A DNA stretch of 7,417 bases from a virus (lineage: Duplodnaviria > Heunggongvirae > Uroviricota > Caudoviricetes). The stretch lies in the IMG/VR virus record IMGVR_UViG_2537562019_000013; one strand, written 5' to 3'. This document shows positions 1,094-7,417 of the stretch, one piece after another. How positions within the stretch are numbered: position 1 is the stretch's first letter; every line of letters begins with the position of its first letter. The translations under genes were made by a program, and so were the position numbers. Below the pieces are notes generated by a model. That model had not been told where the DNA came from, did not search any database, and saw only the letters and a list, made by a program, of their open reading frames with translations.

Positions 1094-1190
1094 CTTAAAT
1101 GTCCCTTTACTGCGAAAATGGACATTAGTATCGGAAACAGGAAAGGGAGGCGAAAGACGGTTTAAATGAGACGGTTACCCATAAACGATA

Positions 1191-1210
1191 AAACCGCCCG
1201 GAGGCGGTTT
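1191..1210 (-). terminator. Perfect 8-bp stem hairpin (AAACCGCC-CGGA-GGCGGTTT) immediately downstream of gene I; possible intrinsic terminator or attenuator
   Basis: Seen directly: 1191-1198 aaaccgcc, loop cgga, 1203-1210 ggcggttt. On the minus strand it is followed by TTTTATCGTTTAT, a T-rich but interrupted tract. It lies 19 bp after the I stop codon. Confidence 0.35.
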
Positions 1211-1228
1211 CACATAAAACATTTTGCA

Positions 1229-1898
1229 TCAGCGACCAATCACCACAACCTGACCACCATCCCCTTCGTCTGCCGTGCTGATCTCCTGAGAAACCACGCG
1301 TGACCCCACGCGCATTTCACCGTACAGAACCGGCAGAACATTACCCTGGGCAACCATGTTATCCAGGGAGGAGAAATAGGTGTTCTGTTTGCCGTTATCC
1401 GTTGTCTGTGTACGGGGAGTTCTGGCTTTCGGTGCCAGCATCTGCGCCACACCACCGAGCACCATACTGGCACCGAGAGAAAACAGGATGCCGGTCATAC
1501 CACCGGTCCCAATGGCTGCCCCCCATGCTGCAAGGGTGGCTCCGGCGGTAAAGAATGATCCGGCAATGGCGGCAGCCCCCAGGACAATCTGGAATACGCC
1601 ACCTGACTTGGCCCCGGCGACTCTGGGAACAATATGAATCACAGCGCCATCAGGCAGAGTCTCATGTAACTGCGCCGTTAACCCGGACGTGCTGACGTCC
1701 CGCCCGGCAATCCGTACCTGATACCAGCCGTCGCTCAGTTTCTGACGAAACGCCGGAGCTGTGTGGCCAGTGCCCGATGGCTTCAGCCCCCGTTTTCACA
1801 CGAAGGTCGATGCGGCGGCCAAATCGTTGTAAATCCCCGTAAAGGCAGATGCGCGCCATGCCCGGTGACGCCAGAGGGAGTGTGTGCGTCGCTGCCAT
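1229..1898 (-). pseudogene. I: Lambda-like tail tip assembly protein I, split into two frames (N-terminal ORF 1662..1898, C-terminal ORF 1229..1642)
   Basis: The 78-aa ORF starts MAATHTLPLASPGMARICLYGDLQRFGRRIDLRVKTGAEAI, then becomes unrelated sequence. The other frame carries the rest of the protein (..FRQKLSDGWYQVRIAGRDVSTSGLTAQLHETLPDGAVIHIVPRVAGAKSGGVF...VVVIGR). The frames cannot be joined without adding 2 nt between about 1752 and 1778. ATG at 1898 has a GAGAGG RBS and overlaps the K 3' end by about 100 bp, as in lambda. Confidence 0.65.
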
Positions 1899-2539
1899 TT
1901 GTCGGTATACCTCTCTCGTTTGCTCAGTTGTTCAGGAATATGGTGCAGCAGCTCGCCGTCACCACAGTAAATGGCGGCATGATTCGGCACCGATGAACCA
2001 AAACAGCACAGCAGCACATCGCCCGGCTGCGCCGCTGACAACGGCACCTGATACAGCCCTGTGGCCTCCAGATTATCCAGATAGAGATTCTGACCGTTAC
2101 GCCACCAGTCATCCTCGCGATGAAAATCCGGCATCTCAATCCCCGCCAGATGGTAAGCATCCCGGAACAGCGTGTAACAGTCCGTCACCCCGTGCTCAAA
2201 GCGCCGCCCGGAAAGATGTGGCACACAGCGGAACTTGTGAATCGCCCCCCGGCAAACCAGCCACCACGGCAAATCACTCTGCACCTGCAGCCGCCGGTCG
2301 GCCTCACTCAGCCAGGGCAGACCACCGGGGTGGCTGTGGACCAGCGCCACAATCTCACCCTGCATTTCTGCCTGCAGCCAGTCCTCCGGCGACATCCGGA
2401 AATACTCCTCCGGCTCACCGGAGATATTCACGCAGGGAAAATATCTTTCCCCCTCCGGCGTGCTTACCACGAAGCCGCACGACTCCGCTGGCGCACATCG
2501 CCGGGCGTGCGCCAGAATCGCTGATTCTGTCTGTGTCAT
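1796..2539 (-). CDS. K: Lambda-like tail tip assembly protein K (247 aa), MPN/JAMM plus NlpC/P60 domains
   Basis: The translation has a JAMM-type motif (VHSHPGGLPWLSEAD: H-x-H-x7-S-x2-D) and a downstream Cys/His region consistent with NlpC/P60 (..GVTDCYTLF.., ..NHAAIY..). The start ATG at 2539 lies 5 bp after the L stop. Position between L and I matches the lambdoid tail-tip order. Confidence 0.85.
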   Translation of the reverse strand: MTQTESAILAHARRCAPAESCGFVVSTPEGERYFPCVNISGEPEEYFRMSPEDWLQAEMQGEIVALVHSHPGGLPWLSEADRRLQVQSDLPWWLVCRGAIHKFRCVPHLSGRRFEHGVTDCYTLFRDAYHLAGIEMPDFHREDDWWRNGQNLYLDNLEATGLYQVPLSAAQPGDVLLCCFGSSVPNHAAIYCGDGELLHHIPEQLSKRERYTDKWQRRTHSLWRHRAWRASAFTGIYNDLAAASTFV

Positions 2540-2544
2540 GGGAT

Positions 2545-3243
2545 TTACTGCGAAAGTTTGTTAATGGAAAGGAAGCCGCCAAAGTTGCCGACGTTATTGC
2601 GGAACTTACAGCCACTCAGGCATTTGCTGCATTTATCCTTCGTGATATCGGACGTTGTCTGGTCATATTCATCCGCGACCGCCGGACCGTGATAACCGCA
2701 CTCATCGCCGCGATAGGTCCAGGTGCAGGTGTTGGCCAGCATGATACGTCCCGGAAAAACAGCGCCATCTGTTTCCGTCGGCGTGGACAGTACAAAGGAG
2801 GCACTCACCGCGCTCAGTTCGCTGCACTGCTCGATGCGCCAGCGGCTGATCACCTCCTGCTCCGGATCGGCGTCACTGTTTCCGTTAACGAAGTTCACCG
2901 CATCCAGAAAACGGGCGTAAACCTTACGCCGGACCACCGTTCCGCCGACCAGACTCTGCAGATCTTCCGCCATCCCGGTGACCATACCGTACAGGTTAGA
3001 AACCGTCAGCGTGGGGCGCGTACTGGTGCCTTTGCCATTCAGTTCAAAACCACTCCCCTGAATGGGATACGGCTGATACTGTCGCCCCTGCCAGGTGACC
3101 GGCTCACCTTTTTCGTTCTGCTCATTACAGAAAAAATAACGTTCTCCACCGACCTCTGTCAGGTCGATTTCCCAGAGCACCACGCTGGCCGACTGCTCCG
3201 CACGGGTGCATTCATTCAGTGTTTCCTGCCGGATATCCTGCAT
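2545..3243 (-). CDS. L: Lambda-like tail tip assembly protein L (232 aa)
   Basis: 232 aa, the same length as lambda gpL, with a C-terminal cysteine cluster (C-x8-C ... C-x2-C-x3-C) consistent with the Fe-S site reported for gpL. Its ATG overlaps the M stop in an ATGA arrangement at 3243. Confidence 0.85.
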   Translation of the reverse strand: MQDIRQETLNECTRAEQSASVVLWEIDLTEVGGERYFFCNEQNEKGEPVTWQGRQYQPYPIQGSGFELNGKGTSTRPTLTVSNLYGMVTGMAEDLQSLVGGTVVRRKVYARFLDAVNFVNGNSDADPEQEVISRWRIEQCSELSAVSASFVLSTPTETDGAVFPGRIMLANTCTWTYRGDECGYHGPAVADEYDQTTSDITKDKCSKCLSGCKFRNNVGNFGGFLSINKLSQ

Positions 3244-3572
3244 CAGTTCACCACCTGTTCAAACTCTGCGCTGAACTCAACACGCAACATACTGACCCGC
3301 GACGACCATTTTGCGCAGGTCACCTTTATCTGCCGCCACTCATAAGGCGGCGTCCACAGAAAGGCTTTCCAGCCCCCGTGCTCTTCCAGAAACGACTCCA
3401 GTACCGTGGCCTCCTCACGGGGGACAGAAAGCGTCACGCTGTACGTTTTCAGGTTGGCATTCAGCCCGGCAGGCGCTCGCTGAGAATAGCCATCACCAAA
3501 GCGCACCTTTCTTACAGAAGGGACCGAAGCCACATCCATACCGGGTTTCACTTTCCAGCGGAAGGTCTTCAT
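3243..3572 (-). CDS. M: Lambda-like tail tip assembly protein M (109 aa)
   Basis: 109 aa, the same length as lambda gpM, in the conserved H-M-L position. Its start overlaps the stop of the H C-terminal frame in an ATGA arrangement at 3572..3569. Confidence 0.85.
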   Translation of the reverse strand: MKTFRWKVKPGMDVASVPSVRKVRFGDGYSQRAPAGLNANLKTYSVTLSVPREEATVLESFLEEHGGWKAFLWTPPYEWRQIKVTCAKWSSRVSMLRVEFSAEFEQVVN

Positions 3573-6147
3573 CGTCCACCTCCGGAGAACAGGCCACCAT
3601 CACGCATCTGTGTCTGAATTTCATCACGGGCACCCTTGCGGGCCATGTCATACACCGCCTTCAGAGCAGCCGGACCTGGCAGACCATTCGTACCGTCGTT
3701 CTGAATCACCACGTGATTGTTCTGATTAAAATTAATGCCTTCAGCCCGCCGCATCTGCGCCGGACTTCCCGGCACCGCACATAACCACCTTCCGCATAGC
3801 CCCGCATCAGGCGGTACAGGTTGCCGACACCAATCCGGCTGGTTGCCTCCTTCGTGAAGACAAACTCACCACGGTGAACAATCCCCGCTGGCTCATATTT
3901 GCCGCCGGTTCCCGTAAATCCTCCGGTTGCAAAATGGAATTTCGCCGCAGCGGCCTGAATGGCTGTACCGCCTGACGCGGATGCTCCACCACTGGCAGCA
4001 CCGCCAATGGCGCTGCCGATACTCCCGACAATCCCCACCATTGCCTGCTTAAGCAGAATTTCTGTCATCATGGACAGCACGGAACGGGTGAAGCTGCGCC
4101 AGTTCTGCTCACTGCCGATCAGCATCGCCGCCATATTCTGTGCAATACCATCAAAGGTCTGCGTGGCTGCACTTTTTACCTGCGACATACTGTCCGTGGC
4201 GCTCTCTTCCCACTCACTCCAGCCGGACTTCAGGCCTGCCATCCAGCTCCCGCGAAGCTGGTCTTCAGCCGCCCAGGTCTTTTTCTGCTCTGACATGACG
4301 TTATTCAGCGCCAGCGGATTATCGCCATACTGTTCCTTCAGGCGCTGTTCCGTGGCTTCCCGTTCTGCCTGCCGGTCAGTCAGCCCCCGGCTTTTCGCAT
4401 CAATGGCGGCCCGTTTTGCCCGTTGCTGCTGTGCGAATTTATCCGCCTGCTGCGCCAGCGCGTTCAGGCGCTCCTGATACGTAACCTTGTCGCCAAGTGC
4501 AGCCAGCTGGCGTTTGTACTCCAGCGTCTCATCTTTATGCGCCAGCAGGGATTTCTCCTGTGCAGACAGCTGGCGACGTTGCGCCGCCTCCTCCAGTACC
4601 GCGAACTGACTCTCCGCCTTCCACAAATCCCGGCGCTGCTGGCTGATTTTCTCATTCGCTCCGGCATGCTTCTCCAGCGTCCGGAGTTCTGCCTGAAGCG
4701 TCAGCAGGGCAGCATGAGCACTGTCTTCCTGACGATCGCCCGCAGACACCTTCACGCCGGACTGTTTCGGCTTTTTCAGCGTCGCTTCATAATCCTTTTT
4801 CGCCGCCGCCATCAGCGTGTTGTAATCCGCCTGCAGGATTTTCCCGTCTTTCAGTGCCTTGTTCAGTTCTTCCTGACGGGCGGTATATTTCTCCAGCGGC
4901 GTCTGCAGCCGTTCGTAAGCCTTCTGCGCCTCTTCGGTATATTTCAGCCGTGATGCCTCAGACTCGGCCCAGTCCTTTGCTGCCATCTCTCTGGCCTTTT
5001 CAAGATCGGCCTGCAACGTGGCGGCTGAAAGCCCAAGTTGCGCATTCGCTCTGTCCTCCCATGCTCCCCGGAGATTGGCAAGAAATGCTGAGGTTTTACC
5101 GCGCCGGTGGCTCCGGCTCTGATACCACTGCCATTTTTTGTCCGCCTCATCAAAAGCCTTTTCTGCTTTCTCCAGCATTCCCTGGGCAGTGTCCGGGCGA
5201 CCAATATCCAGCACCGAATCCCACATGGATTTGAATGCCCGTGCTGTCCTGTCTGCCCAGGTCTCCAGCGTGCCCATGTTCTCTTTCAGGCGGCGGGTCT
5301 GGTCATCAAACCCTTTCGTTGCGGCTTCGTTCGCCGCCTGCAATGCCCCGGCTTCATCGCCGGAACGCTGCAACTGAGCAACATACGCAATCTGCTCCGC
5401 CGTCACGTTATGGAACTGACGCGCCATCGCCGTCAGCCCCGACGTCGGGTCTGTGGTCAGCTTCCCGAAGGCTTCAGCGACCTTGTCCACCTCCACGCCG
5501 GATGCAGAGGAGAAACGCGCCACACTCTGGCTGATCGCCTCAAACTGCTCACCACCACGCACACCGGCATTCACCAGCGCCGTCAGTGACTCGCTGGTCT
5601 GGTTAAACGTCAGCCCTGCCGCCTGCCCGGCTCTGGACAGGACCAGCATACGATCTGCCGTCAGACCCGACTGATGACCGGAAAGGACCAGCGTTTTGTT
5701 GAAATCGGACAGGGTTGAGTTGCCCTGATACCAGGCATACGCCAGCGCACCGGTCGCCACCGCCAGCGAGGTGGCCCCCACCATCGGCAGGGTGATCGCA
5801 CCGGCAAGCCCCCTGAACATGGGGATCATCCCGCCGAAGGAGTCCTTAACCTGACCCCCCTGTTGCAGCAGGATCAGCCACGGACTTTGCCCGCCTGCAA
5901 GCTGCGTGGCCACGTCGGTGAACTGTGCAGGCAGCATACGCATGGCGGCTTTATACTGCCCGACGGAAATCCCCGCTTTCTGTGCAGCCAGCGCCTGTCG
6001 GCTCAGCGACTGTTCAACGACTGCCGCTGTTTTTTTCGCATCACTTTCCGTACCGGAAAAATGACGCCTGACTCTGGCCATCTGCTCGTCAAATCTGGCC
6101 GCATCCAGACTCAAATCAACGACCAGATCGCCTACCGGTTCAGCCAT
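3569..6147 (-). CDS. H: Lambda-like tail tape measure protein H, frame-disrupted near the 3' end (main ORF 3706..6147, 813 aa; C-terminal 67 codons in another frame at 3569..3775)
   Basis: The N-terminus (MAEPVGDLVVDLSLDAARFDEQMARVRRHF..), long coiled-coil middle and glycine-rich segment are typical of a tape measure protein. After ..LMRGYAEGGYV the main frame becomes an aberrant 30-aa tail (RCREVRRRCGGLKALILIRTITW*). The true C-terminus (..NFNQNNHVVIQNDGTNGLPGPAALKAVYDMARKGARDEIQTQMRDGGLFSGGGR) is in a frame offset by 1 nt and ends exactly at the M start. Confidence 0.8.
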
Positions 6148-6978
6148 ACCGGACTCCTCCTGCGATCCCTTCTGATACTGTCATCAGCATTACGTCATCC
6201 TCCGTCATGTCCGCCACATCCGGGGAAGCGGGGATAACTTCATTCCCGTCCGGGCCAAAGCGGACGCCTCCGGCAAGCCCTGCCGCTTTCTGCATCAGCA
6301 CATCATCTTCAGGCTCTTCGTCAGCCTCACGCCGGTTCAGCAGACTGAAATCCAGCGGATGCATATCCGGATCGCTGAAAAACAGGCTGAGTACGGTGTA
6401 CGTCAGCCCGGAAAAGTGCATATCCAGCAGAACATCATGAAAATAATGGGTACTGTAAAAGCGGTGCCAGTCGGCATACTCCGTGGATGACATCCCGGCA
6501 AGCATGGCACGCCAGTCGGGTCGCCCCATCTCTCGCGCCAGTTTCAGGGCAAAACTCAGCTCACCATCGAACACTTTCCCGCAGAAACAGGCTCTGCAGG
6601 CCCGGCGTCCTCTGTCTGTTCAGGAGCATCATTCACCACAAACTCATACATACCGGACAGCCGGTACACCACGTTTTCAGCATGAGAAATTGCCTCCGTG
6701 GGCCAGGTGGTAAGCACTTCCTGCTCAATCTGTTTAACGGCTTCATTCATGGAAGGCAGCTTTGTCTTCTTCGGATGGTTATGCCACAGGGACATCGCCA
6801 CCAGAAACGCGCCGGTTCTGATGGCGTCTTCCACAGTAAACTTCCGGTTGCTGTCTGACTCCGCCTGTTCTGCCTGCCGTTTCATCAGGGCGAGATGCTC
6901 AATACGCTGCAGGGCTGACAGTTCAGAAAGCGTGACGGTCACACCGTTATGTTCAAATGATTCGGTTTTCAGGAACAT
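6140..6978 (-). CDS. T: Tail assembly chaperone G-T fusion made by programmed -1 ribosomal frameshift (T portion at 6140..6574)
   Basis: The -1 frame after the slippery site reads K-VFDGELSFALKLAREMGRPDWRAMLAGMSS.., which is the T ORF in the track. That ORF has no proper start of its own; its leading M is a GTG inside G. It overlaps the H start by 8 nt. This is the conserved G/GT arrangement of lambdoid and many other tailed phages. Confidence 0.8.
6556..6978 (-). CDS. G: Lambda-like tail assembly chaperone G (140 aa)
   Basis: 140 aa, ending ..PVSAGKCSMVS, with the slippery heptamer G GGA AAG in frame near its 3' end. ATG at 6978 is preceded by a GGAGA RBS, 15 bp after the V stop. Confidence 0.85.
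   Translation of the reverse strand: MFLKTESFEHNGVTVTLSELSALQRIEHLALMKRQAEQAESDSNRKFTVEDAIRTGAFLVAMSLWHNHPKKTKLPSMNEAVKQIEQEVLTTWPTEAISHAENVVYRLSGMYEFVVNDAPEQTEDAGPAEPVSAGKCSMVS
6574..6580 (-). promoter_or_regulatory. Programmed -1 frameshift slippery heptamer G GGA AAG (G-T recoding site)
   Basis: Plus-strand ctttccc at 6574-6580 is GGGAAAG on the minus strand, with GGA and AAG as in-frame codons of G (..A-G-K-C..). A -1 slip enters the T frame. Confidence 0.8.
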
Positions 6979-6993
6979 CGCTGACTCTCCGGA

Positions 6994-7417
6994 TTAACTG
7001 GCGGTGACGTTGATTTCTGCAACCGCAGCAAGTTCACCATTACCGGATACGACCGGAATGTTGACCTTGCCTGCAGCAACACCTTTCACGGTGATGGTCA
7101 TACCACTGACCGACACGGTGGCTTTTGTTTTATCCGCTGACACCGCACGGAAGCTCTTGTCGGTTGCGCCTTCCGGCTGGAATGCCACGGTCAGCGTGGT
7201 GCTCTTCCCTTTCACTACGGAAGCGCTGGCTGGCGTCACGGTCATACCGGTTGCCGCTGTTACCGTGCTGCGATCTTCTGCCATCGACGGACGTCCCACG
7301 TTGGTGACTTTCACCGTGCGGGTGATCACTTCCTTCGCCGTCACCGCCTTACCGATACTGCTGACCCAGCCGCGGAACACATCGACCGTGCCGTTCGGGA
7401 AGCGGATTTTATAGGCA
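6994..7417 (-). CDS. V: Lambda-like major tail protein V, C-terminal part including the Ig-like domain; 5' end lies beyond the window
   Basis: The frame is open from the window edge (..[83 protein letters not shown]...NVTAS*). The T/V/S-rich C-terminus looks like the Big_2-type Ig-like domain of gpV. The M at 7380 in the track is an internal GTG. Stop TAA at 6996..6994. Confidence 0.8.

Follow-up and report, generated by a model that had tools for sequence, protein, structure and literature searches.

The frameshift that interrupts the tape measure gene H in this window (the whole 7,417-nt stretch of DNA that was analyzed) is most likely a consensus error made during assembly, in a collapsed and chimeric contig, rather than a property of the strain. 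The indels responsible for the break are private to the contig, the alleles of two paralogous tail modules are interleaved along it, the two H indels coincide with gap positions in the alignment of these paralogs, and the strain was sequenced with short reads that were assembled by an overlap-consensus method. A similar disruption was found in gene I of the same contig.

In the contig, the main frame of H encodes 813 aa and occupies positions 3706..6147 on the minus strand, according to the open reading frame (ORF) list and the sequence. Its product tracks lambda gpH through ...MRGYAEGGYV, in which the final V is codon 790. Thereafter, 23 aberrant residues (RCREVRRRCGGLKALILIRTITW*) were read before a stop at 3706. 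The conserved C-terminus (..GSPAQMRRAEGINFNQNNHVVIQNDGTNG...MRDGGLFSGGGR*) was found in the -1 frame, which runs without a stop from 3868 to its end at 3569, inside the ATGA overlap with the start of gene M (3572). As judged from the ORF list and the alignment, this orphan C-terminal piece comprises 69 conserved residues at 3569..3775 (-). The break thus sits 69 codons ahead of the natural end of the gene, and the repaired H is 859 aa long. The original prediction, which was made from the sequence alone, had described both the departure from the conserved sequence after GGYV and the continuation of the C-terminus in a frame offset by 1 nt up to the M start, and both descriptions agree with the ORF list and the sequence. 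Its estimates of size need correction, since the aberrant tail was given as 30 aa, the break as about 65 codons before the end, and the restored protein as about 857 aa.

The repaired 171-residue C-terminal stretch matched residues 683-853 of lambda gpH from end to end with an E value of 1e-89, which means that the conserved -1 frame is not due to chance. The Pfam families TMP_2 (PF06791) and Tape_meas_lam_C (PF09718) were detected at H residues 54-256 and 633-707, respectively. Their scores (236 and 71 bits) were the same for the truncated and the repaired protein, and both exceeded the curated cutoffs. In addition, H is placed between the G/T chaperone genes and M-L-K-I, which is the position expected for a lambda-like tail module. 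The likeness to lambda gpH (853 aa; PDB 8iyk, 8iyl, 8k35, and 9e7m) extends to the gene order V-G-T-H-M-L-K-I and to the combination of TMP_2 with Tape_meas_lam_C. The repaired C-terminus also covers the coiled-coil helix at gpH 818-842 (PDB 8iyk and 9e7m). The window differs from lambda in that its last 69 H residues lie in another frame and in that the repaired H reaches 859 aa, because its central segment and the patch that follows GGYV are variant. A single frame running through the C-terminal helix to the M overlap was present in all relatives and is broken here at codon 790. By every feature tested, except for the continuity of its frame in this contig, H is a member of the lambda gpH family.

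The H lesion was defined by nucleotide alignments with five relatives, and it consists of two indels. At 3777..3778 (-), two G are missing, so that GTGGGC, the reading of all relatives, has become GTGC. In the G run at 3768..3770 (-), one extra G is present, which turns the CCGGAA of the type-6 relatives into CCGGGAA; the type-8 lambda-like paralog reads CCGGG at this spot. The two changes (-2 and +1) are 9 nt apart and add up to a net -1, with zero substitutions relative to the commonest allele. The junction reads GGTTATGTGCGGTGCCGGGAAGTCC in the contig, GGTTATGTGGGCGGTGCCGGAAGTCC in type 6, and GGTTATGTCGGTACACCGGGCAGC in type 8. Alignment with intact tape measure genes therefore bears out the ancestral single frame that had been proposed and locates two indels, a 2-nt deletion and a 1-nt insertion, where the original prediction had expected a single missing base near 3776-3780.

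When a 91-nt probe over the H junction was searched against 5,426 finished E. coli genomes, neither indel was found at any of the 1,897 homologous places. The best identity was 96.8% (90/93 columns), and the difference corresponded to exactly the two indels. Among the matches listed, down the whole ranking, 92 nt were spanned, versus 91 in the window. Representative H alleles from CFT073, O157:H7, and others were all in frame. In exact protein look-ups, the truncated H was on record only on APXB01000377.1, and the 61-aa gene called at 3569-3754, which corresponds to the orphan H piece, was likewise on record only on the contig of the window. Repetition of the lesion in independent assemblies or related strains, a feature of genuine pseudogenes, was not seen; the lesion is private to this contig.

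For a tail gene with two overlapping frames and the downstream one at -1, the G/GT frameshift of lambda is the obvious precedent. The same window in fact carries a genuine -1 site of this kind, the canonical slippery heptamer G GGA AAG at 6574-6580 (-), where G ends within its overlap with T. A programmed -1 ribosomal frameshift between 3868 and 3706 could in principle yield a full-length H in the same manner, but this explanation has a negligible probability and can be regarded as effectively excluded. A scan of the frame overlap (3868-3706) revealed no X XXY YYZ heptamer, in line with the earlier reading of the junction. The two-frame layout, unlike that of G/GT, is conserved in no relative: H was one ORF at the 1,897 finished-genome places and in all phages examined, and the homologous prophages in finished E. 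coli genomes that were searched for a conserved two-frame arrangement did not have one. Moreover, a frameshift downstream of the lesion would retain out-of-frame residues within the protein. Because a slippery site is absent and the homologous places are one base longer and single-frame, the sequence evidence indicates that H was ancestrally read in one frame and that its break is a lesion rather than programmed recoding. The claims that the -1 frame is the ancestral one and that the break represents a lesion thus gained support from the single-frame homologs.

The whole window corresponds to contig APXB01000377.1 of assembly GCA_000356365.2 from the E. coli enterotoxigenic (ETEC) strain 179550, in which the truncated H was deposited as ENA58053.1. 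According to Table S1 of Sahl et al. 2017 (PMC5469772), strain 179550 (APXB00000000, run SRR446711) is a CS7 ETEC that came from Bangladesh. It was sequenced with Illumina HiSeq 2000 100-bp reads and assembled with the Celera Assembler (methods, PMC5469772). The same table gives the MLST status of both 179550 and 180200 as "untypable," which could reflect novel alleles or assembly errors. Among finished genomes, the closest relative of the window overall was E. coli LR-71-1 (L005:2771-5350). In the annotation of LR-71-1, H is a pseudogene that contains an internal stop, which is a different and independent lesion.

Both H and I are intact in four finished genomes of the lineage. Among the genomes with intact H (853 aa) and I, 90-9280, ETEC-2264, and LR882978 have the same IS66 junction as the window. 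A second prophage in the same three genomes has a tail module that is 97-98% identical and an H of 859 aa with a lambda-like 3' end. The two paralogs of 90-9280 are located at 4462643-4465204 and 652384-654963 of CP024240.1. Compared segment by segment, the window was 99.3-99.5% identical to the H alleles of this genome (WP_001703004.1 and WP_033561711.1), and it has the IS66 junction in common with the WP_001703004.1 locus. However, the two alleles of 90-9280 are single ORFs (853 and 859 aa), whereas the window interleaves both and contains four private indels.

A site-by-site comparison demonstrated that the window switches at least 30 times between these two alleles, which are referred to as type 6 and type 8. 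The segment from 1180 to 3100 was 99.5% identical to the type-6 copy of the lineage, far above other finished genomes, and all of its substitutions relative to that copy (7/7) were the type-8 allele. The segment from 3880 to 7000 was 99.3% identical to the type-8 copy, and 21 of its differences were the type-6 allele. At the 3' end of H, the contig passes from type 8 to type 6 (about 3678-3830, with the lesion inside) and back to type 8 (3565-3672), thereby joining a non-lambda patch (GGAGSPAQMRRAEGINFNQ...) to a lambda-like patch (GPAALKAV). This combination of the 3565-3672 and 3678-3830 patches had no match among 8,197 places in finished E. coli genomes. Over 1180-7000, three private substitutions were counted versus four private indels. 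Each of the four indels falls within a short run of G or C, and they form two tight pairs, 9 nt apart in H and 20 nt apart in I, neither of which restores the frame.

The position of the H indels is also informative. When type 6 was aligned optimally with type 8 at the junction, four of five scoring schemes placed a 3-nt gap (GT[GGG]CGGT) and a 1-nt gap (CC[-]GG). With these four schemes, the gaps coincided exactly with the two sites of the H lesion, and their direction was the same. The window retains a single G of the three and includes the extra one, and it is therefore a column-wise intermediate of two alleles that are both in frame and of equal length.

The remaining genes of the window follow the order and belong to the Pfam families known from lambda and many E. 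coli prophages, and all are on the minus strand. The 3' part of the major tail gene V (6994..7417), which encodes an Ig-like C-terminal domain, runs off the contig end and is followed by G (6556-6978) and T (6140-6574). A cluster of seven window-private substitutions was observed in the Ig-like C-terminal domain of V, at 7138-7246; these probably derive from a third V allele, that is, from a further paralog near the contig end. Downstream of H, genes M (3243..3572, 109 aa) and L (2545..3243, 232 aa) are intact and represent common alleles. Gene K (1796..2539, 247 aa, JAB/NlpC-P60) is also intact but mixes the two paralog alleles into a hybrid, and its protein was unique to this contig among 153 billion gene positions, in contrast to the common M and L alleles.

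Gene I (1229..1898, minus strand), which encodes a tail tip protein that is the structural partner of the gpH C-terminus, is split into pieces of 78 and 137 aa and carries two 1-nt deletions in C runs that are private relative to all relatives, one at about 1775 (ATCCGGG to ATCGGG) and one at about 1755 (CTCCCGG to CTCCGG). The junction sequences in the contig are ATCGGGCAC and AGCTCCGGCG. The distinguishing sequences for gene I are GAAGCCATCGGGCACT against GAAGCCATCCG[C/G]GCACT and CAGCTCCGGCGTT against CAGCTCCCGGCGTT. One of these indels adjoins a single nucleotide that differs between the paralogs, and the one at about 1755 has no known paralog difference nearby. An exact look-up of the 78-aa fragment gave no support from any other contig. 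The 137-aa fragment occurs on 20 contigs and was considered as independent support for the I frameshift. It was rejected as such, since none of the four contigs aligned over the I N-terminal region (L013:1527-1705, L014:608-786, L017:1307-1484, and L010:7835-8013) had the indels of the window. Of these four contigs, two have CAG-to-TAG nonsense changes that differ from each other, one has a G run shortened by 1 nt, and one is interrupted by a scaffold gap filled with N. Gene I seems to have been inactivated repeatedly in prophages.

An IS66-family element fills the end of the contig (1..1178, minus strand), with tnpA at 443-1093, tnpB at 96-443, and the start of tnpC at the contig end, which lies within the IS. 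The element was inserted after ...TTTATGG, with the junction at about 1178/1179 and about 10 nt upstream of the J start codon, and it splits the GGAG ribosome-binding site of J. The same junction was present in the finished ETEC genomes 90-9280, ETEC-2264, and LR882978.

Collapsed-repeat and chimeric consensus errors are a known artifact of short-read draft assemblies. The present case resembles them in being a short-read overlap-consensus draft of multi-copy prophage modules, in having contig ends within repeats (IS66 and V), in the per-site mixing of alleles, and in the location of the two H indels at the gaps of the copy alignment. The four finished lineage genomes, together with the mixed contig, suggest that strain 179550 carries both paralogs. 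Strains of this lineage have at least two lambdoid prophages whose tail modules, at 97-98% identity, include long identical stretches, and 100-bp reads are unable to separate such copies. Reads of both copies would then be merged into one contig, with the consensus picking either allele at each site. At the 3' end of H, a column-wise consensus would have retained one of the three G and added the extra G, leaving a sequence that is one base short and matches neither copy. Both H genes are probably intact in the cell, and the consensus step is probably what produced the indels.

A consensus artifact is favored because the contig comes from a short-read draft with multi-copy, near-identical segments and combines mixed alleles with a unique K hybrid. 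In addition, indel pairs that are tight and do not compensate each other are unlike independent or compensatory mutations. Several points count against this explanation. The two alleles are about 18-25% divergent in the vicinity of the H lesion, which is more than an overlap assembler normally merges, so it is not obvious how reads of both copies would have come together there. No known paralog difference lies near the second I indel, at about 1755. Given the IS66 element just upstream of J, it is plausible that selection was relaxed and that H and I have truly decayed, and independent, real-looking lesions of gene I occur in other public assemblies.

The indels might instead be real, in which case an IS66-crippled prophage would have received many short gene-conversion patches from a co-resident prophage and then acquired private frameshifts in H (net -1) and I (net -2). 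We consider this unlikely. Decay through frameshifts and IS insertions is known from defective lambdoid prophages of E. coli, and the window shares with them an IS66 element within its late operon and tail genes that are interrupted at short homopolymer runs. The insertion also occurs in finished genomes, selection on the tail genes is probably relaxed by it, and the short G/C runs holding all four indels are the usual sites of slippage. The nonsense codons and the -1 found in gene I of other assemblies are independent natural lesions, the H of LR-71-1 is annotated as a pseudogene in a finished genome, and the part of gpH lost here would be the structurally ordered one. However, the lesions of the window occur in no related genome and are private to one draft contig, against four finished genomes of the lineage in which H and I are intact, and the pattern fits the mixing of paralogs better. 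An excess of private indels over private substitutions (four versus three), arranged in two tight pairs without compensation, also counts against real decay. About 30 conversion patches would be required in one strain, the H indels match paralog gap positions, heteroduplex repair does not give the loss of two G from a 3-nt loop, and the hybrid K protein is found nowhere else. It is rather improbable that the contig is correct throughout, with some 30 short gene-conversion patches exchanged between two co-resident lambdoid prophages and with the IS66-disrupted copy then losing the C-terminal tip helix of H and its partner I through clustered indels. If this were true, the contig would show prophage decay, very rapid and driven by recombination, at one moment in a single clone.

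All four indels alter the length of a G or C run, as would plain homopolymer-length read errors of the flow-sequencer type without any involvement of a paralog. This explanation is highly improbable, since the project used Illumina HiSeq 100-bp reads, and it was rejected as the main cause on account of the platform. It would also leave the interleaving of alleles and the unique K hybrid unexplained. On Illumina instruments, errors in runs of two or three bases are rare and would not win the consensus at normal depth. Since such runs are seldom miscalled, simple read error is a poor explanation, and the consensus of collapsed copies is a good one.

In lambda, gpH residues 818-842 form a three-helix coiled coil that is held by the gpI tripod in the lumen of the tail tip (PMC10721106). 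The original prediction held that loss of the H C-terminus would block tail tip assembly. The importance of the lost segment stands, as it includes the counterpart of this coiled coil. As a biological mutation, however, the loss is probably not what it was taken to be, given that it is private, lies in a mixed-allele draft contig, and is accompanied by further private indels. If the lesions were real, H would lack its last 69 residues, including the helix held by the gpI tripod, and its partner I would be broken too, so that no functional tails would be expected. The frameshift would then represent ordinary decay of a prophage that was already disrupted by an IS. Either reading of the H break is an ordinary one and carries little biological weight.

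If the frameshift is an assembly artifact, as we favor, neither of the two deposited proteins, ENA58053.1 and ENA58052.1, is likely to be a real product. The contig would then offer a practical signature of this type of error, namely, alleles that alternate from site to site, a hybrid protein without a counterpart elsewhere, and indels placed at the gaps between paralogs. In general, it would warn against calling frameshifts of multi-copy prophages in short-read drafts pseudogenes or recoding events without read support.
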